A DNA stretch of 64,000 nt from Escherichia coli (GTDB lineage Bacteria; Pseudomonadota; Gammaproteobacteria; Enterobacterales; Enterobacteriaceae): the NCBI RefSeq assembly GCF_965641715.1, contig NZ_OZ282453.1; one strand, given 5' to 3'. The position numbers and the translations under genes were made by a program. Position 1 is the first letter of the stretch. Each line of letters opens with the position of its first letter. Below are positions 5,819 to 42,080 of the stretch, piece by piece. The notes beneath the pieces are model-generated. The model was not told the origin of the DNA, made no database searches, and saw nothing but the letters and a program-made list of their open reading frames with translations.

Positions 5819-6487
5819 TCCTTCCTCAATCTTGAGTAACCCCGTCGTTGAAGGGTTACTCAATTCATCCTGATTATACGCACTGTCATGGTGCAATTGC
5901 TTCAAATTAAAACTCTGGTCTGACTTCAAATAATTATCATATTATTTATTTGCGTAACGGGATATCAGAAAAAGATATTTACCTCATTAATTTATTAGGA
6001 TGTTTACATCGGATTTGTGATTAAGCGTGGTATTATTTATTAGCGAAACGTTTCTCTCTTGATTTTTTTGCTCACTCATCAATTTTTCTTATTTTAAATT
6101 TACAATCCCTTTGGGGATTGACTTCTCTTTAGGGTAATTGATAGCCGTTAACTGACTGTTTTATGAGAAAAAGTGATATAACTTTTTATTCATTGCATAG
6201 CAGAAAATGTGATATTGCACGCACTATGTAATAACTTCTCCCACTGGCCTGGAACAACTGAACTTATTGAACTATGTTAGAAACTACGCCAGTTTAAGTA
6301 TCTGCCTGAACTGGCAAGGTTAAGCACAATGATATATCGGCGCGTATTCCGTTGCATAAGTGTGCAAAAAAAGTGGAAGACGTATCGAGATTTGTGCGTC
6401 TGATCGAGACATGTTTAAAAATGGCTTGCCATAATTAACGTTGTATGTGATAACAGATTTCGGGTTAAACGAGGTACAGTTCTGTTT

Positions 6488-6631
6488 ATGTGTGGCATTT
6501 TCAGTAAAGAAGTCCTGAGTAAACACGTTGACGTTGAATACCGCTTCTCTGCCGAGCCTTATATTGGTGCCTCATGCAGTAATGTGTCAGTTTTATCTAT
6601 GTTATGCCTGCGGGCGAAGAAAACAATCTAA
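6488..6631 (+). CDS. yobF: Small protein YobF (47 aa), co-transcribed with cspC
   Basis: Manual translation [47 protein letters not shown], ends 12 bp before cspC start. Confidence 0.75.
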
Positions 6632-6643
6632 GGAATTTTTCAA

Positions 6644-6853
6644 ATGGCAAAGATTAAAGGTCAGGTTAAGTGGTTCAACGAGTCTAAAGGTTTTGGCTTC
6701 ATTACTCCTGCTGATGGCAGCAAAGATGTGTTCGTACACTTCTCCGCTATCCAGGGTAATGGCTTCAAAACTCTGGCTGAAGGTCAGAACGTTGAGTTCG
6801 AAATTCAGGACGGCCAGAAAGGTCCGGCAGCTGTTAACGTAACAGCTATCTGA
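6644..6853 (+). CDS. cspC: Cold-shock-domain protein CspC
   Basis: 69-aa [40 protein letters not shown]... with RNP1/RNP2 motifs. Confidence 0.95.
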
Positions 6854-6898
6854 TCGAATCCACTGATCTGAAGTGTGAATACGCTTCAATCTCGCTAT

Positions 6899-6925
6899 AA
6901 AGCCTCGTCGAATGCGAGGCTTTTT
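6899..6925 (+). terminator. Intrinsic terminator after cspC
   Basis: Stem AAAGCCTCG/CGAGGCTTT, 7-nt loop, followed by TTTTT. Confidence 0.8.
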
Positions 6926-7018
6926 ACTATGCTTTATCTTCGCTCCTGGCGTTCGGATATTTGCCCGCCGCGTGATTCGCGTTACACTTGCGGCCTTTAG
7001 TATCCTGCCGGAGTTGTC

Positions 7019-7828
7019 ATGTCGTTTTCCTGTCCACTTTGCCATCAGCCTCTTTCGCGTGAAAAAAACAGCTATATCTGTCCCCAACGACATCAGTTTG
7101 ATATGGCGAAAGAAGGGTATGTCAATCTGCTGCCCGTTCAGCATAAACGGTCTCGTGATCCGGGCGACAGCGCGGAAATGATGCAAGCACGCCGCGCATT
7201 CTTAGATACCGGACATTATCAGCCGCTGCGTGATGCAATTGTCGCCCAACTGCGGGAACGGCTTGATGAAAAGGCCACGGCGGTGCTGGATATTGGCTGT
7301 GGTGAAGGGTATTACACACACGCATTTGCCGATGCGTTGCCCGAAATCACCACGTTTGGTCTGGATGTTTCGAAGGTAGCGATAAAAGCGGCGGCGAAAC
7401 GCTATCCGCAGGTCACTCTTTGTGTCGCTTCCAGCCACCGTTTGCCGTTTTCCGATACCAGTATGGACGCCATAATACGTATTTACGCGCCGTGTAAAGC
7501 AGAAGAATTAGCACGAGTAGTGAAGCCCGGCGGCTGGGTCATTACTGCCACGCCGGGACCGCGACATTTGATGGAGCTGAAGGGGCTGATTTACAATGAA
7601 GTACATCTTCATGCACCTCATGCAGAACAACTGGAAGGTTTTACATTACAGCAGAGTGATGAGTTGTGTTATCCGATGCGTCTTCGCGGTGATGAAGCCG
7701 TCGCATTATTGCAGATGACGCCGTTTGCCTGGCGTGCGAAGCCAGAAGTCTGGCAAACACTGGCAGCAAAAGAAGTGTTCGACTGCCAGACGGACTTTAA
7801 TATTCACCTCTGGCAGCGTTCTTATTAA
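7019..7828 (+). CDS. rlmA: 23S rRNA m1G745 methyltransferase RlmA
   Basis: 269-aa ORF with N-terminal Cys4 zinc ribbon (CPLC...CPQRH) and SAM-binding motif DIGCGEGYY. Confidence 0.9.
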
Positions 7829-8391
7829 CCGTGGAAGTGCGTCCAGAGGATCTGGACGCCGATGCCGATCAGCACCAGCCCGCCGAGAATTTCCGCTTTT
7901 TTCCCAATAATTGAGCCGATAAAGCGACCAACCATCATCCCTAATGTCGACATAATCAAGGTTGCACAACCAATGGCCAATGCGGTCGCGATAATGTTGA
8001 CCTGAAGGAAAGCAAGACCAACACCCACAGCCATGGCATCCAGGCTGGTGGCAATCGCGGTGGTTACCAGTAGCCAGAAACCGTGCCGACGGCGCGGCTC
8101 TTCATCTTCATCATCTGCGCCACGAAAACCCTCAATAATCATTCGCCCGCCGAGGAATATCAGCAGCACAAACGCAATCCAGTGATTCCATTCAAGGACA
8201 AACCGGCTGGCTAACATGCCCATTCCCCAGCCGATCAGCGGTGTCAGGGTTTCGACGGCACCAAAAATAAGGCCGGTTCGCAATGCTTCAGAAAATTTCG
8301 GTTTATGGAGGGTGGCACCTTTACCGATTGATGCAGCAAATGCATCCATCGACATACCAAACGCAAGAAGAACAGTAGCAGTGATATTCAT
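7825..8391 (-). CDS. mntP: Manganese efflux pump MntP
   Basis: 188-aa membrane protein starting [18 protein letters not shown]...; the ORF track extends 81 codons further upstream (to 8634) across the leader and is not part of the gene. Confidence 0.9.
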
Positions 8392-8394
8392 GAC

Positions 8395-8625
8395 AACGTC
8401 CTGACCGGGGTATCCATAAAACACATCATCGCCCCCAGCAAACATGCATACATGAACAACAAGCCGCGATGGTTTTTCGCGTTCATGCAGGCATAGCGAT
8501 TGATGTGCATATGGTCTCGCCTGACTGAAAGTCTTCAGTCCGTACGTGCCACGTTTTGCAACGAGTATGTTGACACGTACATTTCCGGAATCTGGAAATT
8601 GGCTACTCCCCAAATGAGGGCGCAA
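8395..8625 (-). promoter_or_regulatory. mntP 5' leader, probable yybP-ykoY (manganese) riboswitch
   Basis: Long leader upstream of mntP; minus-strand RNA contains GGGGAGUAGCC (8601-8611 on plus strand as GGCTACTCCCC) and GAGACC (8513-8518) consistent with conserved riboswitch elements as I recall them; E. coli mntP is known to carry this riboswitch. Confidence 0.55.
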
Positions 8626-12494: not shown

Positions 12495-14051
12495 ATGGAA
12501 TTCTTAATGGACCCCTCAATTTGGGCGGGGCTACTCACGCTTGTTGTTCTCGAAATTGTGCTGGGTATCGATAACCTGGTCTTCATCGCCATTCTTGCTG
12601 ACAAACTGCCGCCAAAACAACGCGATAAAGCGCGTTTGCTGGGGTTATCACTGGCGCTGATTATGCGTCTGGGGCTGCTGTCGCTGATTTCATGGATGGT
12701 CACGCTGACCAAACCGCTATTTACCGTCATGGATTTCTCCTTCTCCGGACGCGACCTGATTATGTTGTTCGGGGGGATATTCTTGCTGTTCAAAGCAACA
12801 ACCGAACTGCATGAACGGTTGGAAAACCGTGATCATGATTCCGGCCACGGTAAAGGCTACGCCAGTTTCTGGGTAGTCGTCACACAGATTGTCATCCTTG
12901 ACGCCGTCTTCTCGTTGGATGCGGTAATTACTGCAGTAGGGATGGTTAACCATCTGCCGGTGATGATGGCGGCGGTAGTGATTGCGATGGCGGTTATGTT
13001 GCTGGCATCCAAACCGCTGACGCGATTTGTTAACCAGCACCCCACGGTGGTGGTGCTCTGTCTGAGCTTCCTGTTAATGATTGGTCTGAGTCTGGTGGCA
13101 GAAGGTTTCGGTTTCCACATTCCGAAAGGTTACCTGTATGCCGCGATTGGCTTCTCGATCATCATCGAAGTGTTTAACCAGATTGCGCGTCGCAACTTTA
13201 TTCGTCACCAGTCGACTTTGCCGCTGCGAGCGCGTACTGCCGATGCCATCCTGCGTTTGATGGGCGGGAAACGTCAGGCCAATGTTCAGCACGATGCCGA
13301 TAACCCGATGCCGATGCCGATCCCGGAAGGTGCATTTGCCGAAGAAGAACGTTACATGATTAACGGCGTACTGACGCTGGCGTCGCGTTCTCTGCGCGGG
13401 ATCATGACGCCGCGCGGTGAAATAAGCTGGGTTGACGCTAATCTCGGGGTAGATGAAATCCGCGAGCAGCTGCTCTCCTCACCGCACAGCCTGTTCCCGG
13501 TATGTCGCGGTGAACTGGATGAAATCATCGGAATCGTACGTGCTAAAGAACTGCTGGTGGCGCTGGAAGAGGGCGTTGATGTGGCGGCGATTGCTTCGGC
13601 GTCTCCGGCGATTATCGTCCCTGAAACCCTCGATCCGATCAACCTGCTGGGCGTGCTGCGTCGTGCTCGCGGGAGCTTTGTTATCGTGACCAACGAGTTT
13701 GGTGTGGTACAAGGCTTGGTCACGCCGCTGGATGTGCTGGAAGCCATTGCGGGTGAATTCCCGGACGCTGACGAAACGCCGGAGATCATTACTGATGGTG
13801 ACGGCTGGCTGGTAAAAGGCGGTACAGATTTGCATGCCTTGCAGCAGGCGCTTGATGTTGAGCACCTTGCCGATGACGATGATATCGCGACGGTCGCGGG
13901 CCTCGTGATCTCGGCAAATGGTCACATTCCCCGTGTGGGCGATGTGATTGATGTAGGGCCACTGCATATCACCATCATTGAAGCCAATGATTATCGTGTT
14001 GATCTGGTTCGCATTGTTAAAGAGCAACCGGCGCACGATGAAGATGAGTAA
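12495..14051 (+). CDS. yoaE: TerC-family membrane protein fused to CBS/CorC domains, YoaE
   Basis: 518-aa ORF: N-terminal TerC-like integral membrane domain, C-terminal CBS pair plus CorC-like domain. Confidence 0.85.
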
Positions 14052-14054
14052 GCG

Positions 14055-15653
14055 TTAACGTAACGGCATAATGGGCGTGATATGTCCATTATGCCGGGCG
14101 GGCGGCGGTTGGCTGCCCGCCAGCCATTTGGGAAAATCACGTAGCGGCATCGGCTGTGCGTACAAATACCCTTGCAAAATATGCACGCCATGACGGCGCA
14201 AATATTTCGCCTGTTCTTGCGTTTCCACACCCTCCGCCACCAGTTCAATATTCAGTCTTTGCCCCAGTGCGATGATGATATCGGTCACCGTCGAGTTAAC
14301 CGCGTCAGAACCTATAGCTGCGGTAAATGACTTATCAATTTTCAGCACGTCAGGACGTAATGTTTCAAGCCAGGAAAACGAGCTGTTGCCGGTGCCGAAG
14401 TCATCAATCGCCAGTTTGACGTTTTTACGATGCAGCTCGCGGGCAATCCGATAATCAACATCCAGTAAGGCATCGCGTTCGGTGATTTCGAGGATCAGTT
14501 GCTGAATCGGGTGAGCACTAAACCAGTACTGATTGAGATCTTTTATCAGCACACCACGGCGAAAATGGCTGGGTGCGACGTTAATGCCAACATGAAACTG
14601 ACTACTCATTGGGAAAACATGGCGCTGACGAATGGTTTCTGCCATCACATAGCGGGTCAGTGGCACAATTAAATGATGTTCTTCCGCGATAGGAATAAAC
14701 ACATCCGGTGAAATCCAGCCCTGACGCGGATTGTTCCAGCGCAGCAAAATCTCTACACCAATACATTGCTGGCTGCGCGCATTAAGCAAAGGCTGACAGA
14801 ACAATTCGAACTCATGTTGCGCCAGGCCCAGATTGATTTCGCGGGAAAAGCTCATCCGGTAAGCGGTCGCCAGCCAGGCGATGTAGCCCACCAGTAAACT
14901 TAGCAGCACCGCCAGCGGTAATTGTGTTGGAAGATAGTGCCATGCCAGCGCCGTAGCCCCCGGACCATTAACGTTAATGGTAAAAGGAAAGCGTTGCGAA
15001 GAAACCTGATAGTTTTCATTGTCTTCAGGTTGCGGAAGGGAATCTACCAGCCCATTACCATAGAGCAAATGCCGTTTGTCCACCGTCAGGCTGGCGCTAC
15101 TGATTTGCGGCAGTTGTGGCTCAAGGAGCATTGCCGTCAGTAAGTCGATGTTAATCATCTCCATGACCCCAGCATTGCTACTGCCCGCTGCAGGCGTCCA
15201 TTGAATCAAAACCGGACTGCCTTTAATCAGGGCACGGTCGATCGTCAGGCGTAAAAGTGGTTGCGGTGCAGGAAGTTCAGCCAGAATGTCCACGACGGGC
15301 ACATTGCGATAACCAAAAATGCTGGAGCAATAGAGTGTGCCGTCTTGCACCAGGCCAATGGATCGCACAGTTTGGAGTTTTGCCGCCTGTTTACGTAATG
15401 GCAAATGGGCGACAGAGCAGGGCAGACCAATCAGCGGAAGCAAGACTTCGCTACCTGCCTGTAGGGGAAGCAGTACTTTATCTAATTCCTCTACAGCATG
15501 ATTGGCGAATTGTACTACCCGTTGTTGATTTAAGTTACGCTGTGAAATAAATCGCACGCTCAGGGTCGAAGCGAGCGTAACGAGTGCGCAAATCGTACAA
15601 ACAATCATTCGATTACGGCGATAGGTTTTAATGATCCGTTGTGCTTTTTGCAT
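14055..15653 (-). CDS. pdeD: c-di-GMP phosphodiesterase PdeD (YoaD), CSS-EAL type
   Basis: Membrane-anchored periplasmic domain followed by EAL domain; start chosen at MQKAQRIIKTYRR (532 aa) from recollection, the track ORF begins 10 codons earlier. Confidence 0.8.
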   Translation of the reverse strand: MQKAQRIIKTYRRNRMIVCTICALVTLASTLSVRFISQRNLNQQRVVQFANHAVEELDKVLLPLQAGSEVLLPLIGLPCSVAHLPLRKQAAKLQTVRSIGLVQDGTLYCSSIFGYRNVPVVDILAELPAPQPLLRLTIDRALIKGSPVLIQWTPAAGSSNAGVMEMINIDLLTAMLLEPQLPQISSASLTVDKRHLLYGNGLVDSLPQPEDNENYQVSSQRFPFTINVNGPGATALAWHYLPTQLPLAVLLSLLVGYIAWLATAYRMSFSREINLGLAQHEFELFCQPLLNARSQQCIGVEILLRWNNPRQGWISPDVFIPIAEEHHLIVPLTRYVMAETIRQRHVFPMSSQFHVGINVAPSHFRRGVLIKDLNQYWFSAHPIQQLILEITERDALLDVDYRIARELHRKNVKLAIDDFGTGNSSFSWLETLRPDVLKIDKSFTAAIGSDAVNSTVTDIIIALGQRLNIELVAEGVETQEQAKYLRRHGVHILQGYLYAQPMPLRDFPKWLAGSQPPPARHNGHITPIMPLR

Positions 15654-24333: not shown

Positions 24334-26019
24334 TTGAAGAAGGTTTGGCTTAACCGTTATCCCGCGGACGTTCCGACGGAGATCAACCCTGACCGTTATC
24401 AATCTCTGGTAGATATGTTTGAGCAGTCGGTCGCGCGCTACGCCGATCAGCCTGCGTTTGTGAATATGGGGGAGGTGATGACCTTCCGCAAGCTGGAAGA
24501 ACGCAGTCGCGCGTTTGCCGCTTATTTGCAACAAGGGTTGGGGCTGAAGAAAGGCGATCGCGTTGCGTTGATGATGCCTAACTTATTGCAATATCCGGTG
24601 GCGCTGTTTGGCATTTTGCGTGCCGGGATGATCGTCGTAAACGTTAACCCGTTGTATACCCCGCGTGAACTTGAGCATCAGCTTAACGATAGCGGCGCAT
24701 CGGCGATTGTTATCGTGTCTAACTTTGCTCACACACTGGAAAAAGTGGTTGATAAAACCGCCGTTCAGCACGTAATTCTGACCCGTATGGGCGATCAGCT
24801 ATCTACGGCAAAAGGCACGGTAGTCAATTTCGTTGTTAAATACATCAAGCGTCTGGTGCCGAAATACCATCTGCCAGATGCCATTTCATTTCGTAGCGCC
24901 CTGCATAACGGCTACCGGATGCAGTACGTCAAACCCGAACTGGTGCCAGAAGATTTAGCCTTCCTGCAATACACCGGCGGCACCACAGGTGTGGCGAAAG
25001 GCGCGATGCTGACTCACCGCAATATGCTGGCGAACCTGGAACAGGTCAACGCCACCTATGGGCCGTTGCTGCATCCAGGTAAAGAACTGGTAGTAACGGC
25101 ACTGCCGCTGTATCACATTTTTGCCCTGACCATTAACTGCCTGCTGTTTATCGAACTGGGTGGGCAGAACCTGCTTATCACTAACCCGCGTGATATTCCA
25201 GGGTTGGTAAAAGAGTTAGCGAAATATCCGTTTACCGCTATCACTGGCGTTAACACCTTGTTCAATGCGTTGCTGAACAATAAAGAGTTCCAGCAGCTGG
25301 ATTTCTCCAGTCTTCATCTTTCCGCAGGCGGTGGGATGCCAGTGCAGCAAGTGGTGGCAGAGCGTTGGGTGAAACTGACAGGACAGTATCTGCTGGAAGG
25401 CTATGGCCTTACCGAGTGTGCGCCGCTGGTCAGCGTTAACCCATATGATATTGATTATCATAGTGGTAGCATCGGTTTGCCGGTGCCGTCGACGGAAGCC
25501 AAACTGGTGGATGATGATGATAATGAAGTACCACCGGGTCAACCGGGTGAGCTTTGTGTCAAAGGACCGCAGGTGATGCTGGGTTACTGGCAGCGTCCGG
25601 ATGCTACCGATGAGATCATCAAAAATGGCTGGTTACACACCGGCGACATCGCGGTGATGGATGAAGAAGGGTTCCTGCGCATTGTCGATCGTAAAAAAGA
25701 CATGATTCTGGTTTCCGGTTTTAACGTCTATCCCAACGAGATTGAAGATGTCGTCATGCAGCATCCTGGCGTACAGGAAGTCGCGGCTGTTGGCGTACCT
25801 TCCGGCTCCAGTGGTGAAGCGGTAAAAATCTTTGTAGTGAAAAAAGATCCATCGCTTACCGAAGAGTCACTGGTGACTTTTTGCCGCCGTCAGCTCACGG
25901 GCTACAAAGTACCGAAGCTGGTGGAGTTTCGTGATGAGTTACCGAAATCTAACGTCGGAAAAATTTTGCGACGAGAATTACGTGACGAAGCGCGCGGCAA
26001 AGTGGACAATAAAGCCTGA
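24334..26019 (+). CDS. fadD: Long-chain fatty acid-CoA ligase FadD
   Basis: Acyl-CoA synthetase motifs ([22 protein letters not shown]); start placed at TTG giving [14 protein letters not shown] (561 aa) as I recall it; the track ORF starts 22 codons upstream at ATG. Confidence 0.85.
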
Positions 26020-26038
26020 GCGTTAAGTCAGTCGTCAG

Positions 26039-26064
26039 ACGCCGGTTAATCCGGCGTTTTTTTT
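26039..26064 (+). terminator. Intrinsic terminator after fadD
   Basis: Stem ACGCCGG/CCGGCGT with TTAAT loop, followed by 8 T. Confidence 0.8.
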
Positions 26065-29446: not shown

Positions 29447-31057
29447 TCAGTTGTCGCCTTTGAATACGGTTCCCGCAGGGAGCACTGGTGTTTTTTCCAG
29501 GGCTTCAACCGGTGTCTGCGGGAGATAATGTTCAACTTGATGAGCCGGAATGTCGGCGTAATCCTGTTTCAGCCAGCGAATAAATCCGCCGACTTTCACC
29601 AGTAAAATGACGAGGAAGGGAAGGGCTGTGAGCACGACGGTGGTTTTCATCGTTTCCAGCGAAGCACCGGTAAACAAGATGGAAAGCGGGATCAGAGTGA
29701 TCACCACGCACCAGAAAAGACGCAGCCCACGGTCAGGATCGTCACCTTCCTGGAGATTACGCGTACTGGTCGCCGCCATGGTGTAGGCCACTGCATCCAT
29801 ATGCGAGGCAAGGAAAATAATCATTACGCCCAGGTATGCGGCGAGGAACAATTTACCGGCTGGCAACGACATCAGAACTTGCTGTACAGCTGTTTCGCCG
29901 CCCAGTGTTTCCAGCACCTGTGGGACGTTGATTACGCCATTGATAAACTGATGAATGGCATAGCTTTCCATTACGCCGAAGAAGAACCAGCAACCGACGG
30001 TGCTGCCGAGGATCAGTCCCCAGATAACTTCTTTAATCTTACGACCGCGGGAAACGCGGGTGACAAACATTGCTACGCCAGGGGGGTATGAGATCCACCA
30101 CAGCCAGTAGAAAACGGTCCAGTTGCGGGTAAATGAACCATCGCCAAGCGGATCGGTGAATAAGCTCATTTGCAGGAAGTTTTGCGTGGTCAGACCGATG
30201 GCATTGATGATGCTGTTGGTAATAAATTCGGTTGGACCGACAATCAGCACCAGTAATGTCAGCAGGAACGCGCCCCAGCCAACCATTTTGCTCAGACGTT
30301 GCAAACCGTTGTTGATACCAATCCATGAGCTTAGGCAAAAAATGCCGCCGGAAAGCAGGATCACAAATGCCTGCACGGTGAAGTTATCGGGTAAACCGGT
30401 CAGTGCGGAAAGTCCGCGAGTAAAGGTTGCTGCGGTGACAACAAGGGAAATAGTCAGTGCGCCGACAGTGGCGATCAGGAACATCAAATCAACCAGTTTT
30501 CCCCATGGGCCTTGCGGGCGAACGCCGGTAATCGCGGCAATAATGCCGGAAAGACTCAGACCTTTGTTTTTCCGCACATGAAAGTGATAAGCCATGATTA
30601 ATGAGGCCAGCGTATAAGTTGCCCAGGCGCTGATGCCCCAGTGGAAGAAGGAGTAAGGGACGCTAAATTCGAGTGCCTGTTGTGAACGCGGTGCGATATT
30701 TAATCCAGGCGTTTGATAATAATAGGCCCATTCAGCAACCCCCCAATAAAGCGTAGAAGAACCTAAACCGGCACAAATAAACATAAACAGCCAGGAGAGC
30801 GTGCTGTATTCCGGTTTTCCTTCGCCAAGACGAATATTGCCGTATTTACTGGTGGCTAAATAAATCACCAGTCCCATTGCCAGCAAAACCAATACCTGTA
30901 CGGCGGAACCTAACGTACGCGTAACAAAAGTGTATATTGCGTTGGCCGCGTCGGCCGATTGTTGTGGGAAAAGGCTTAATGCAGCTGCGATGAAAAGAAT
31001 GGCCACCAGGCTGATGCTTATCAGCGGCACATCTTTTTTCTTAACATTGCTCATCAT
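29447..31057 (-). CDS. yeaV: BCCT-family (betaine/carnitine/choline) transporter YeaV
   Basis: Polytopic membrane ORF with Trp-rich BCCT signature region ([14 protein letters not shown]); true start codon uncertain, full track ORF given. Confidence 0.8.
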
Positions 31058-31261
31058 GAGTCATCTCCTGGGCATAAAAGCCCGTCTCTGGCTTTTGCCA
31101 GTTGTAATTATTTGCAGGGTAATGAGTTGTATGTTGTGTTTAACAAATTGATTATTTGCATGTTACATAAATTAAACAATTAAGAATACGGAAAGCCATA
31201 AAACACGAAACGGAAACAATAAAAGGTGAAATGACGCAGGTTATTAACTGCAAAGAACGAA

Positions 31262-34356: not shown

Positions 34357-34479
34357 ATGCTTCAAATCCCACAGAATTATATTCATACGCGCTCAACGCC
34401 TTTCTGGAATAAACAAACTGCACCTGCTGGAATATTCGAACGTCATCTTGATAAAGGAACGCGCCCGGGGGTTTACCCC
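34357..34479 (+). pseudogene. yeaR: yeaR 5' fragment (codons 1-41), interrupted by IS186
   Basis: MLQIPQNYIHTRSTPFWNKQTAPAGIFERHLDKGTRPGVYP then reads into the IS and stops after 13 foreign codons. Confidence 0.85.
34468..34478. repeat. Left target-site duplication of IS186 (GGGGTTTACCC)
   Basis: Identical 11-mer recurs at 35817-35827 immediately after the right end of the IS. Confidence 0.8.
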
Positions 34480-35816
34480 ATAAGCGCTAACTTAAGGGTT
34501 GTGGTATTACGCCTGATATGATTTAACGTGCCGATGAATTACTCTCACGATAACTGGTCAGCAATTCTGGCCCATATTGGTAAGCCCGAAGAACTGGATA
34601 CTTCGGCACGTAATGCCGGGGCTCTAACCCGCCGCCGCGAAATTCGTGATGCTGCAACTCTGCTACGTCTGGGGCTGGCTTACGGCCCCGGGGGGATGTC
34701 ATTACGTGAAGTCACTGCATGGGCTCAGCTCCATGACGTTGCAACATTATCTGACGTGGCTCTCCTGAAGCGGCTGCGGAATGCCGCCGACTGGTTTGGC
34801 ATACTTGCCGCACAAACACTTGCTGTACGCGCCGCAGTTACGGGTTGTACAAGCGGAAAGAGATTGCGTCTTGTCGATGGAACAGCAATCAGTGCGCCCG
34901 GGGGCGGCAGCGCTGAATGGCGACTACATATGGGATATGATCCTCATACCTGTCAGTTCACTGATTTTGAGCTAACCGACAGCAGAGACGCTGAACGGCT
35001 GGACCGATTTGCGCAAACGGCAGACGAGATACGCATTGCTGACCGGGGATTCGGTTCGCGTCCCGAATGTATCCGCTCACTTGCTTTTGGAGAAGCTGAT
35101 TATATCGTCCGGGTTCACTGGCGAGGATTGCGCTGGTTAACTGCAGAAGGAATGCGCTTTGACATGATGGGTTTTCTGCGCGGGCTGGATTGCGGTAAGA
35201 ACGGTGAAACCACTGTAATGATAGGCAATTCAGGTAATAAAAAAGCCGGAGCTCCCTTTCCGGCACGTCTCATTGCCGTATCACTTCCTCCCGAAAAAGC
35301 ATTAATCAGTAAAACCCGACTGCTCAGCGAGAATCGTCGAAAAGGACGAGTAGTTCAGGCGGAAACGCTGGAAGCAGCGGGCCATGTGCTATTGCTAACA
35401 TCATTACCGGAAGATGAATATTCAGCAGAGCAAGTGGCTGATTGTTACCGTCTGCGATGGCAAATTGAACTGGCTTTTAAGCGGCTCAAAAGTTTGCTGC
35501 ACCTGGATGCTTTGCGTGCAAAGGAACCTGAACTCGCGAAAGCGTGGATATTTGCTAATCTACTCGCCGCATTTTTAATTGACGACATAATCCAGCCATC
35601 GCTGGATTTCCCCCCCAGAAGTGCCGGATCCGAAAAGAAGAACTAACTCGTTGTGGAGAATAACAAAAATGGTCATCTGGAGCTTACAGGTGGCCATTCG
35701 TGGGACAGTATCCCTGACAGCCTACAAAACGCAATTGAAGAACGCGAGGCATCGTCTTAACGAGGCACCGAGGCGTCGCATTCTTCAGATGGTTCAACCC
35801 TTAAGTTAGCGCTTAT
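34479..35816 (+). mobile_element. Insertion sequence IS186 (IS4 family), about 1338 bp
   Basis: Perfect 22-bp terminal inverted repeats ATAAGCGCTAACTTAAGGGTTG (34480-34501) and its reverse complement (35795-35816); single transposase ORF; flanked by an 11-bp direct repeat; boundary uncertain by 1 bp on the left. Confidence 0.9.
34528..35646 (+). CDS. IS186 transposase (DDE, IS4 family)
   Basis: 372-aa ORF MPMNYSHDNWSAILAHIGKPEELDTSARNAGALTRRREIRDAATLLRLGLAYGPGG... recognised as the IS186 transposase. Confidence 0.9.
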   Translation: MPMNYSHDNWSAILAHIGKPEELDTSARNAGALTRRREIRDAATLLRLGLAYGPGGMSLREVTAWAQLHDVATLSDVALLKRLRNAADWFGILAAQTLAVRAAVTGCTSGKRLRLVDGTAISAPGGGSAEWRLHMGYDPHTCQFTDFELTDSRDAERLDRFAQTADEIRIADRGFGSRPECIRSLAFGEADYIVRVHWRGLRWLTAEGMRFDMMGFLRGLDCGKNGETTVMIGNSGNKKAGAPFPARLIAVSLPPEKALISKTRLLSENRRKGRVVQAETLEAAGHVLLLTSLPEDEYSAEQVADCYRLRWQIELAFKRLKSLLHLDALRAKEPELAKAWIFANLLAAFLIDDIIQPSLDFPPRSAGSEKKN

Positions 35817-38121: not shown

Positions 38122-38376
38122 ATGAAAATTATCAGTTTTGTTCTGCCTTGCTTGCTGATCCTAGCTGGTTGTTCAACCCGTTCTCAGCCAGAAGCACCTA
38201 AACCGCCGCAGATTGGTATGGCAAATCCGGCGTCGGTCTATTGCCAGCAGAAGGGCGGGACGCTCATTCCAGTGCAGACAGCGCAAGGGGTCAGCAACAA
38301 TTGCAAATTACCGGGTGGTGAAACGATTGATGAATGGGCATTGTGGCGACGGGACCATCCGGCTGGTGAAAAATAA
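38122..38376 (+). CDS. yoaF: Lipoprotein YoaF (DUF333)
   Basis: 84-aa ORF with lipoprotein signal and lipobox LAGC. Confidence 0.8.
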   Translation: MKIISFVLPCLLILAGCSTRSQPEAPKPPQIGMANPASVYCQQKGGTLIPVQTAQGVSNNCKLPGGETIDEWALWRRDHPAGEK

Positions 38377-38397
38377 CCGCCGGATGCCGTACTAAAA

Positions 38398-38745
38398 TCA
38401 CAAGCTACGTAGCCAGTCGGCCAGCACCAGCGCATGGTTCTGCGTGGCGTTTTTTGCTGAGTAGAGCAGGGTCAGCGGCTGTTTTTTGGCGATGTCCGCT
38501 AGCCGCTTTCCTTCTTGCTCGTGTTGCGCCAGTTCTGCAAGATATTGCTCGCGAAAGGTTGCAAAATCGACGACTTCGCCGTGAAAGGCTTTGCGCAGTT
38601 CCGTTGACGGCGTGATTTCTTTATCCCACTCATCAAGGGCTAAATCGGTTTTTTTGATACCGCGCGGCCAGAGGCGGTCGACCAGTATGCGATAACCATC
38701 GCTCTGTTCTGCCGGATCATAAACGCGTTTGCACTGAATATTCAT
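38398..38745 (-). CDS. yeaO: DUF488 protein YeaO
   Basis: Start set at MNIQCKRVYDP (115 aa); track ORF begins 7 codons earlier. Confidence 0.8.
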   Translation of the reverse strand: MNIQCKRVYDPAEQSDGYRILVDRLWPRGIKKTDLALDEWDKEITPSTELRKAFHGEVVDFATFREQYLAELAQHEQEGKRLADIAKKQPLTLLYSAKNATQNHALVLADWLRSL

Positions 38746-40077: not shown

Positions 40078-40899
40078 ATGATGCACAGGTTGAATCTCAA
40101 TGGCTATGAACCCGACCGACACCATGAAGCCGCGGTCGCATTTTGTATTCACGCCGGAACGGATGAGTTAACCAGTCCTGTACATCAGCACCGCAAAGGA
40201 CAGCTGATACTGGCGCTACATGGTGCAATTACCTGTACGGTGGAAAATGCTTTGTGGATGGTGCCGCCACAATATGCGGTTTGGATACCGGGCGGGGTGG
40301 AACATAGCAATCAAGTGACAGCTAACGCTGAACTCTGTTTTCTGTTTATCGAACCCAGCGCAGTGACAATGCCGACAACATGTTGCACATTGAAAATATC
40401 GCCCTTATGCCGGGAATTGATTTTAACCCTGGCAAACAGGACGACGACTCAGCGTGCTGAGCCGATGACCCGCAGATTAATTCAGGTCCTGTTTGATGAA
40501 CTCCCTCAGCAGCCACAACAACAGCTGCACCTGCCCGTTTCTTCTCATCCTAAAATCCGCACGATGGTGGAGATGATGGCGAAAGGGCCCGTCGAGTGGG
40601 GGTCATTGGGGCAATGGGCTGGCTTTTTTGCGATGAGTGAACGCAATCTTGCCCGACTGATAGTAAAAGAGACGGGGTTGAGTTTTCGCCAGTGGCGTCA
40701 GCAGTTACAGCTGATTATGGCGCTTCAGGGATTAGTGAAAGGCGATACTGTACAGAAAGTTGCTCATACGCTGGGGTATGATTCAACAACGGCCTTTATT
40801 ACTATGTTTAAGAAAGGCCTGGGGCAAACGCCAGGCCGATATATTGCGGGATTAACTACTGTTTCCCCACAATCAGCGAAACCAGACCCGCGGCAATAA
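40078..40899 (+). CDS. nimR: AraC-family regulator NimR (YeaM)
   Basis: 273-aa ORF: cupin-like N-terminal domain and C-terminal AraC HTH; divergent from nimT. Confidence 0.8.
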
Positions 40900-41302
40900 G
40901 CGGGCCAACCGGTACGCCGCGAAACAGCGCCACGCCTAAAACAGTGCCCACCAGCAGCCCGGCGACCAGTTGCGGCTGGCTGCCCATTAACGTCACGCCG
41001 CGCCCACCCAGCCAGGAGACAATAACGCCTACTGCAATTGCCACCAGCGATTTCCAGTTCAGAAACGAGTGAATCAGGGTTGAGGGTGGTAGCGTCCCGC
41101 TGGCGATGGGGGCCATAACGCCAATCGTCAGAATGATTATCCCGATACTTAGCCCCTGTTTTTCAATCCACGGGAAAAAGGTGCTTAACGGTGTGACGCG
41201 GACAATGATCAACACCAGAATTGAAACGGCGACAGTGGTGTTATGACTGATAAAGCCCAGCGCAGCTAACCCGAGCAGGATCAGCAAAGTGACATCAAAC
41301 AT
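40856..41302 (-). CDS. yeaL: UPF0756 inner-membrane protein YeaL
   Basis: 148-aa hydrophobic ORF; its 3' end overlaps the nimR 3' end by 44 bp on the opposite strand. Confidence 0.8.
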
Positions 41303-41471: not shown

Positions 41472-41576
41472 ATGAACGATCAAATGTTCGTCGAGACACT
41501 GATTATCACGTCATCGTTTTTTGCCATTGCGGTTGTGCTGGTTTTGTCCGTTCTGCTTATTGAACGGACAGGCTAG
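41472..41576 (+). CDS. yoaI: Small membrane protein YoaI (34 aa)
   Basis: Manual translation [34 protein letters not shown]. Confidence 0.65.
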
Positions 41577-42080
41577 TTACGCAGTGCGGCGGAAATTGAT
41601 CAGTTCTGGTTGCGCAATGCGCAAATAATCCGCGGTTTTCAAAATAACGGATTTATCCAGCATCCCTGCATTGAAGGCGATTTCATCAAATCGTTCGAAG
41701 AGTAGGGGGTCGGCAACCAGTTTGAGTTTTGGATGGAAGCTGAAAGGGGGGATCGCGCCGAAGACACAGCCTGTGAGTTCATCGACTTCCGCCGGGCTGG
41801 CCAACGAAGCGCGTAATCCGCCTATATGGCTGGCGAGTTGGCTCAGATCGGCCTGTTGATCGGCAGCGAGGATCGCCAGAACATGTTGATTTACGCCATT
41901 GCCTTTGACTTTACATACCAGTGCCTTAGCACCCTGGCCTAGAGCGGTGCCACGAATTTCTGACACCGCTTCACATTTACCTACCGCTTCATGGGTAACG
42001 ACGCGGAAATCAGCACCTTCTTGTGATAATAAAGCGATTAACCGCTGATGCGTCACGCTTCCTTTAGCCATTTCAGTCAT
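41577..42080 (-). CDS. yeaK: YbaK/ProX-type aminoacyl-tRNA deacylase YeaK
   Basis: 167-aa ORF with YbaK-like domain. Confidence 0.85.
   Translation of the reverse strand: MTEMAKGSVTHQRLIALLSQEGADFRVVTHEAVGKCEAVSEIRGTALGQGAKALVCKVKGNGVNQHVLAILAADQQADLSQLASHIGGLRASLASPAEVDELTGCVFGAIPPFSFHPKLKLVADPLLFERFDEIAFNAGMLDKSVILKTADYLRIAQPELINFRRTA

Follow-up and report, generated by a model that had tools for sequence, protein, structure and literature searches.

Two convergent gene overlaps in Escherichia coli, nimR/yeaL and rlmA/mntP, are probably ordinary products of stop-codon drift with termination signals inside the partner genes

Introduction

Tail-to-tail overlaps between genes on opposite strands are the closest described relatives of the two loci considered here. 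Such convergent overlaps usually originate by the mutation of a stop codon, and 58 of them were counted in E. coli, of which 21 contain a rho-independent terminator inside a CDS (Lillo and Krakauer 2007, PMC2174442). The tetramers TTAA, CTAA, CTAG and TTAG lead to a jump at length 4, and 4 bp is the modal convergent overlap in prokaryotes; among convergent overlaps of at least 5 nt, phase 123:132 is the most frequent (PMC2174442). As far as the account of Rogozin et al. 2002 is given in PMC2478687, the overlaps that it attributes to stop mutation, like those of PMC2174442, resemble the present ones in that they join real opposite-strand genes with common 3' ends.

Two further categories bear on such loci. 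The first comprises the convergent excludons, of which ExcludonFinder reported 165 in MG1655 (PMC12288877). In 146 of these 165, predicted terminators overlap the partner gene, which makes a terminator inside the partner the common arrangement. The yeaL-nimR pair is itself one of the 165, and three more pairs from the DNA analysed here (yeaK-yoaI, yeaO-yoaF and pdeD-yoaE) are in the same list; rlmA-mntP is absent from the published list of convergent excludons (PMC12288877). The second category consists of Rho-dependent 3' ends from which the RNA is shortened as far as a stem-loop that protects it (Dar and Sorek 2018, as cited in PMC7815308).

Here, we analyse the overlaps of nimR with yeaL and of rlmA with mntP in a stretch of E. 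coli DNA of 64,000 nucleotides, hereafter the window. We consider it likely that both are ordinary tail-to-tail overlaps that arose by stop-codon drift, with no dedicated regulatory device and with termination signals that lie inside the partner genes.

Results

The window is a part of the E. coli chromosome, reversed with respect to K-12 MG1655, where it corresponds to approximately 1.85-1.914 Mb. According to the ORF list and RefSeq, nimR (40078..40899, + strand) encodes an AraC-family repressor of 273 aa and converges on yeaL (40856..41302, - strand), which encodes a DUF441 inner-membrane protein of 148 aa. Read from the sequence, the two CDSs share 44 bp (40856..40899, both strands) in phase 123:132, with nimR codon position 1 opposite yeaL codon position 1. 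The shared stretch spans NimR T260-Q273 with its stop and YeaL L135-Q148 with its stop. On the NimR side it falls in a tail of residues 257-273 beyond the helix-turn-helix (HTH) domain, which was identified as Pfam HTH_18 (residues 180-255, E 1.5e-18) and ends around residue 255-256. On the YeaL side it lies inside a conserved domain, as Pfam DUF441 covers residues 7-145 of 148 (E 2.7e-44). The nimR stop codon TAA (40897..40899, + strand) is antisense to the junction of yeaL Leu135 (CTT) and Ile136 (ATT), within the motif PLIAAG that was invariant when YeaL C-termini were compared across species.

The second pair consists of rlmA (7019..7828, + strand), encoding the 269-aa 23S rRNA m1G745 methyltransferase, and mntP (7825..8391, - strand), encoding a Mn2+ exporter of 188 aa, both defined by the ORF list, RefSeq and Pfam (Zn_ribbon_RlmA, 6.2e-26; Mntp, 1.7e-55). 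A TTAA tetramer at 7825..7828 (both strands) carries both stops in phase 123:213: the mntP stop TAA is the reverse complement of 7825-7827, the rlmA TAA occupies 7826-7828, and bases 7826-7827 are common to the two. The interlocking of two stops in TTAA places this junction in the commonest class of convergent overlaps. The TTAA junction was kept in all eight genera examined, and seven of them have the 4-bp overlap. In Lelliottia, a shifted rlmA frame gives a 48-bp rlmA/mntP overlap.

To place both pairs among their neighbours, the K-12 annotation was mapped onto the window, which yielded 12 convergent pairs with gaps of -44, -4, 0, 3, 21, 48, 50, 53, 58, 92, 119 and 143 bp. The gap is 21 bp or less in five of the 12, and an intergenic terminator therefore has no space there. 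Set against the tail-to-tail class (PMC2174442), the two overlaps fall into its commonest kinds, the 4-bp TTAA class and phase 123:132. Nothing essential differs from that class: 44 bp exceeds the modal 4 bp and stays well below the suspect length of 60 bp. Neither overlap is unusual or goes beyond chance or the norm, and both are of ordinary, known kinds, with yeaL-nimR already catalogued.

We next determined how the 44-bp overlap varies and where it came from. For this, yeaL loci were collected from 80 Enterobacteriaceae species, and nimR was translated from its conserved HTH motif to the first stop. In roughly 55 of the 80 species nimR adjoins yeaL convergently, and 49 of these 55 have an overlap. 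Its length lies between -5 and 45 bp and is most often 17 bp. The 17-bp form was found in 28 species, including Klebsiella, Enterobacter, Raoultella, Kluyvera, Leclercia and one divergent E. coli lineage, and the 44-bp form in 14 species, which represent the state of this window and of most Citrobacter. The remaining species with nimR beside yeaL have overlaps of 20, 21, 6, 0, -4, -5 or 45 bp. In several lineages yeaL is unchanged although its neighbour nimR has been deleted, has become a pseudogene or is missing altogether. For Enterobacter, Lelliottia, Kluyvera and others, tblastn had aligned through the true stop and thereby suggested overlaps of 119-281 bp; these lengths were rejected, as direct translation gave 17 bp.

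A single site fixes the overlap length (40868..40872, both strands), where the yeaL Val145 codon GTG (40868-40870, - strand) lies opposite the nimR Gln265 codon CAA (40870-40872). An isoleucine (ATx) at position -4 of YeaL creates an antisense nimR stop, TAA or TGA, and with it the 17-bp overlap of the 28 species; with a valine at this position nimR reads on and reaches 44 bp, as in the 14 species. The nimR stop thus became Gln265 because YeaL Ile145 changed to Val, by a single A to G transition, and the stop-loss origin described for the class is visible here in the correspondence of Ile/Val at YeaL 145 with stop/Gln at NimR 265. The 44-bp case is a read-on of nine codons after the loss of one stop and is unremarkable. 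We suggest the following course of events. The convergent nimR/yeaL layout would be old in the Enterobacteriaceae, and the NimR tail past the HTH would run antisense to the last, constrained helix of YeaL as far as a chance stop. In most genera this stop would lie opposite the YeaL Ile codon, giving 17 bp. In E. coli and most Citrobacter, the Ile-to-Val change would have turned it into Gln265, followed by nine further codons up to the TAA opposite Leu135-Ile136, giving 44 bp.

In the E. coli population the 44-bp allele is essentially fixed. Of 5426 complete E. coli genomes, 5408 contain a 60-mer across the overlap, 3570 of them in identical form; in a representative with one mismatch the gene models were unchanged. 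The 17-bp allele, in the form of strain E69, gave no megablast match among the complete E. coli genomes.

A probable intrinsic terminator of yeaL is located at 40810..40837 (- strand), as judged from a terminator scan, folding and synonymous-site conservation. It consists of the stem-loop GGCCUGG-CGUUUGCC-CCAGGCC (40837..40816) followed by UUUCUU (40815..40810), all on the - strand. The 7-bp stem has six G-C pairs and an 8-nt loop, starts 18 nt past the yeaL stop and folds with an energy of -14.1 kcal/mol (z -2.1). The arrangement is that of an intrinsic terminator, a GC-rich stem-loop and then a U-tract, downstream of the yeaL stop. The nimR codons that contain it, K245-R254, belong to the most conserved part of the AraC-type HTH, and its sequence is identical in K-12. 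The terminator scan of the region gave two sites versus 2.6 expected in shuffled sequence, i.e., no excess, and the argument for a yeaL terminator is one of position and conservation, not of the scan.

The conservation was first seen in the stem codons of 23 Escherichia/Citrobacter/Salmonella species. Gly247 is GGC in 21 of the 23, Leu248 is CTG in all 23, and Pro252 (CCA) and Gly253 (GGC) each keep their codon in 22; the same species show free variation in the loop codons Gly249, Gln250 and Thr251. A gene-wide entropy test of nimR used 22 species, the C. koseri pseudogene being excluded, and took in 66 four-fold sites at which the amino acid does not vary. The four stem sites were the four lowest in entropy of all 66, at no more than 0.27 bits, and all the remaining 62 sites exceeded 0.52 bits. 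The stem sites differ from the other four-fold sites with p = 4.5e-4 (Mann-Whitney), and drawing exactly these four by chance has a probability of 1 in 720,720. Pro252 is CCA in 21 of the 22 species and is the sole proline column in nimR that prefers A at the third position. Conservation beyond the coding constraint was thus found, and only in the Escherichia/Citrobacter/Salmonella clade.

The predicted structure follows the same boundary. Hairpins of -12 to -20 kcal/mol were obtained for nearly all members of Escherichia, Citrobacter and Salmonella, and Klebsiella, Enterobacter and Kluyvera have a weak hairpin or none. Because it is degenerate outside the clade, the hairpin is not a general requirement of the gene pair. 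Covariation was also considered as support and rejected: across 41 species only one pair had two-sided changes, and 77% of the cells were paired. On this sequence evidence the hairpin is clade-specific, and the case for it is one of conservation, not covariation. Taken together, the hairpin and the UUUCUU tract most likely represent the intrinsic terminator of yeaL, as a prediction. The Term-seq tables of PMC7815308 list no 3' end at K-12 18746xx-18749xx, for which low expression in the media is the likely reason.

The conserved synonymous sites at 40816-40837 might instead serve another purpose, such as a structure for nimR mRNA stability or translation, a site that acts at the DNA level, or Dcm (CCWGG) sites maintained through very-short-patch repair. 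The inverted repeat folds in the nimR sense RNA too, CCWGG is present in both arms of the hairpin, and the missing 3' end in the tables of PMC7815308 would fit such a role. Still, we find this explanation unlikely. The two CCWGG sites in the arms are kept in 21-22 of 22 species, against 1-7 of 22 for the remaining nimR CCWGG sites, which is why repair bias does not explain the stem pattern and why we rejected it as the cause of the conserved stem sites. From its mechanism, moreover, very-short-patch repair acts on the inner C and cannot fix W (Pro252 CCA) or the third positions of the flanking Gly codons. A further point against these other functions is that the U-tract after the hairpin exists only on the yeaL strand, 18 nt past the yeaL stop, as the terminator reading would have it.

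The predicted yeaL terminator may also be compared with bidirectional intrinsic terminators, which Ju et al. 2019 reportedly described between convergent genes. The likeness lies in the part that hairpins at such junctions play in forming 3' ends on both strands. The yeaL hairpin differs in that only one of its sides carries a U-tract, the sequence after it on the nimR strand being GAUAUAUUG. Because of this one-sided U-tract and of its position upstream of the nimR stop, the hairpin is unidirectional and cannot terminate nimR.

At the rlmA/mntP junction, published data define where transcription ends. Term-seq in two growth conditions placed the primary rlmA 3' end at K-12 1906214 (-), which is 7865 (+ strand) in the window (PMC7815308); the K-12 sequence around this end is identical to window 7815-7875. 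Adams et al. annotated it as antisense to mntP (supplementary file 1, PMC7815308). It lies 37 nt past the rlmA CDS, 41 nt into the mntP CDS and 6 nt past a hairpin. This stem-loop in the rlmA 3' UTR (7839..7859, + strand) has a perfect stem of 9 bp, GCGUCCAGA-GGA-UCUGGACGC, inside the mntP codons G-V-Q-I-L-W-T-H. It folds with -15.2 kcal/mol (z -2.8) and is followed by CGAUGC, without a U-tract. The inverted repeat is perfect, and the mntP mRNA therefore forms the hairpin as well. Compensatory changes preserve the hairpin in Enterobacter, Trabulsiella and C. koseri; it is weak in Cedecea, Kluyvera and Lelliottia.

Several lines of evidence connect this end to Rho. A Rho termination region peaks at K-12 1906268 (-), or 7811 (+ strand) in the window (supplementary file 2 of PMC7815308), with a Rho score of 10.2 and p 1.3e-31. 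Reads upstream and downstream numbered 145 and 22 without treatment, and 342 and 530 with bicyclomycin (PMC7815308). The + strand from 7800 to 8300 is C-rich and G-poor, with a GC skew of -0.09 to -0.38. Read-through with bicyclomycin (PMC7815308), a C-rich RNA and a 3' end at a hairpin that lacks a U-tract were therefore all found at rlmA. From the published Term-seq and bicyclomycin data, rlmA termination is strongly Rho-dependent: transcription enters mntP in the antisense direction, and Rho then stops it quickly (PMC7815308). The rlmA RNA would be trimmed to, or protected by, the 9-bp hairpin inside mntP. To the extent that PMC7815308 describes the ends of Dar and Sorek 2018, the rlmA end is alike in lying 6 nt past a stable hairpin without a U-tract and within a strongly bicyclomycin-sensitive region, and differs in that its hairpin is inside the CDS of the convergent gene mntP.

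For nimR and mntP, the terminator scan revealed no intrinsic terminator-like site downstream of nimR on the + strand and no consensus terminator downstream of mntP on the - strand. The tables of PMC7815308 list no 3' end for yeaL, nimR or mntP, and the TERMITe supplements hold no entries for them. A candidate Rho loading region is found at 40900..41050 (+ strand), where the RNA past the nimR stop, antisense to yeaL, is C-rich, G-poor and weakly structured. Its GC skew is -0.18 to -0.24, and with a fold z-score of +1.37 it is less structured than shuffled sequence. These properties would fit the loading of Rho on untranslated antisense RNA, and nimR and mntP would probably both end in this way.

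Having considered the four 3' ends, we asked what they mean for antisense effects. The sequence-only reading had held that the overlaps leave no room for terminators, that transcription of each gene must run into its antisense partner, and that interference or antisense regulation is implied. The first of these statements is wrong, as the predicted yeaL hairpin with UUUCUU lies inside nimR and the 9-bp rlmA hairpin and Rho region lie inside mntP. The second is correct in part: each mRNA does reach the CDS of its partner, as the excludon listing (PMC12288877) and the rlmA Term-seq data (PMC7815308) show, but termination signals limit the read-through. Because each mRNA must extend into the partner CDS, the 3' ends are complementary; given the predicted yeaL terminator, those of nimR and yeaL would be so over at least about 90 nt (40810-40899), and the rlmA mRNA continues for at least 37 nt beyond its stop. 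The third statement found no support, considering that the overlap length drifts, that nimR is lost with yeaL unchanged, and that the conserved elements limit read-through.

A stronger form of the regulatory idea is that the overlaps are selected devices, i.e., true excludons, in which transcription of one gene represses its partner, either because RNA polymerases collide or because RNase III cleaves the 3' duplex. On this view, yeaL would be tied to nitroimidazole efflux through the nimR/nimT module, and rlmA to Mn-induced mntP. The yeaL-nimR pair passes the ExcludonFinder threshold in half or more of 58 RNA-seq data sets, and synteny is higher for excludon pairs than for other pairs (PMC12288877). 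The convergent nimR-yeaL layout is kept in about 55 of 80 species and the rlmA-mntP junction in 8/8 genera; the complementarity of at least 90 nt between the nimR and yeaL mRNAs and the 41 nt of rlmA mRNA within the mntP CDS would supply the duplex. Some antisense effect under selection would agree with both the conserved synteny and the excludon listing.

Yet other observations make selected regulatory devices improbable. The overlap length is not conserved, varying from -5 to 45 bp, and several lineages have an absent, deleted or pseudogenised nimR beside an unchanged yeaL. The elements that are conserved, the embedded terminator and the Rho site, stop antisense read-through, as the 22 downstream versus 145 upstream reads at rlmA without bicyclomycin illustrate (PMC7815308). 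A functional excludon would require mutually exclusive expression and RNase III processing, beyond the transcript overlap reported for yeaL-nimR, and rlmA-mntP is not in the list (PMC12288877). Capture of double-stranded RNA with p19 could not validate convergent pairs (PMC12288877), and we found no anticorrelated expression data for either pair. A more specific version, to which we give very little weight, is that the yeaL terminator may belong to a tuned 3' duplex of at least 90 nt, through which yeaL transcription lowers NimR and de-represses the nitroimidazole exporter NimT, or the reverse. If true, this would be a working excludon that links a DUF441 membrane protein to drug efflux.

Finally, the overlaps could be annotation artefacts of genes whose true C-termini are shorter. 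Many long overlaps in databases are misannotations (PMC2478687), and the last 17 NimR residues lie outside any domain. However, misannotation is mainly a matter of start codons and of overlaps beyond 60 bp (PMC2478687), whereas a C-terminus is set by the first in-frame stop, and the stops are unambiguous in the sequence, which is unchanged in thousands of genomes. Pfam supports the frames right to the ends of YeaL and MntP, and the strong Pfam matches show that all four ORFs are real genes. The RefSeq models are the same for this DNA in NT1F31, PapRG-06-5, O55:H7 DEC5D and K-12 MG1655, where the coordinates are 1874352-1874798 for yeaL, 1874755-1875576 for nimR, 1905688-1906254 for mntP and 1906251-1907060 for rlmA. 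An artefact is already refuted, barring a frameshift error common to all assemblies. The two overlaps claimed in the sequence-only reading are hence real, the 44-bp one being borne out by the ORF list, the sequence and the RefSeq models, and the overlapping stops at 7825-7828 by the TTAA shared in the sequence. Revised models with shorter C-termini, which that reading had offered as a refutation, are inapplicable to C-termini that are fixed by unambiguous stops and concordant in RefSeq; as stop codons set the 3' ends, re-annotation cannot remove either overlap.

Discussion

Our preferred reading, which we hold with good but not full confidence, is that of two ordinary overlaps produced by stop-codon drift. 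At both junctions, termination would come from inside the partner gene. yeaL would end at an intrinsic terminator within the HTH codons of nimR, an arrangement that resembles the CDS-embedded terminators in 21 of the 58 convergent overlaps of E. coli (PMC2174442). Any mutual repression would be a by-product.

Two points are new, both of them modest and both read from sequence comparison. One is the single-nucleotide origin of the 44-bp state in E. coli. The other is the clear selection on the synonymous sites of the predicted terminator hairpin within the HTH codons of nimR.

Beyond housekeeping, the significance of these overlaps is slight. For annotation pipelines, the consequence is that both should stay as annotated. 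For E. coli, a one-nucleotide account is now available of why nimR and yeaL share 44 bp instead of the commoner 17 bp. More generally, convergent genes with little or no space between them need not lack terminators. Terminators can be written in the codons of the partner gene and held there by synonymous-site selection, and the predicted yeaL terminator within nimR would be a small, clean example of such dual coding.

Other convergent pairs, RNA elements and strain-specific sequence in the window

Three more of the window's convergent gene pairs lie 21 bp or less apart. The coding sequences of yoaI (+) and yeaK (-) have 0 bp separating them (41472-41577), those of yoaE (+) and pdeD (-) are 3 bp apart (14051-14055), and those of yoaF (+) and yeaO (-) are 21 bp apart (about 38376-38398). 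All three pairs are included in the convergent-excludon list of the MG1655 ExcludonFinder map (PMC12288877).

Searches with Rfam models placed a Mn2+ (yybP-ykoY) riboswitch aptamer 5' of mntP (8523-8619, -) with 40.1 bits (E-value of 1.7e-9). As the gathering score for yybP-ykoY is 45, the default threshold misses this aptamer. Gathering scores were reached by a cspA-type thermoregulator (6468-6928, +; 136.7 bits), whose match spans the yobF-cspC leader and gene region, and by the sRNA SroD (25978-26063, +; 115.2 bits).

Compared with K-12, the window contains a 1338-bp insertion (34479-35816) that MG1655 lacks at the same site. It codes for a 372-aa transposase, which we take to be IS186 InsL-like. 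About 224 bp upstream of yeaV (30930-31153) are also missing in K-12 MG1655, near K-12 position 1883151.

Variation at the two overlapping junctions

At the rlmA/mntP junction of Lelliottia amnigena (locus L087, 2814-2861), the conserved TTAA is out of register with a shifted rlmA frame, resulting in an RlmA of 286 aa and a 48-bp overlap with mntP. The E. coli-type rlmA 3' hairpin (7839-7859, +, in the window) is lost in Lelliottia.

The presence of nimR varies within the genus (loci L004 and L006-L009; also L035, from C. koseri). In E. albertii and E. whittamii, as in some others, yeaL has no nimR beside it. The C. koseri nimR has a frameshift and stop codons. In Escherichia sp. MOD1-EC7003 (L004, 2473-2616), yeaL is adjoined only by an N-terminal nimR remnant, and the deletion starts inside the arm of the predicted yeaL terminator hairpin that lies within nimR codons (40810-40837, -, in the window).

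The nimR/yeaL overlap region is interrupted by IS1 in E. coli strain 23CRST051 (L092, NZ_AP045826.1, locus positions 1577-2303). Both C-termini are changed and lengthened by the element, giving a nimR of 840 bp and a DUF441 gene (yeaL) of 501 bp, which suggests that replacement of the tail is tolerated in both nimR and yeaL.
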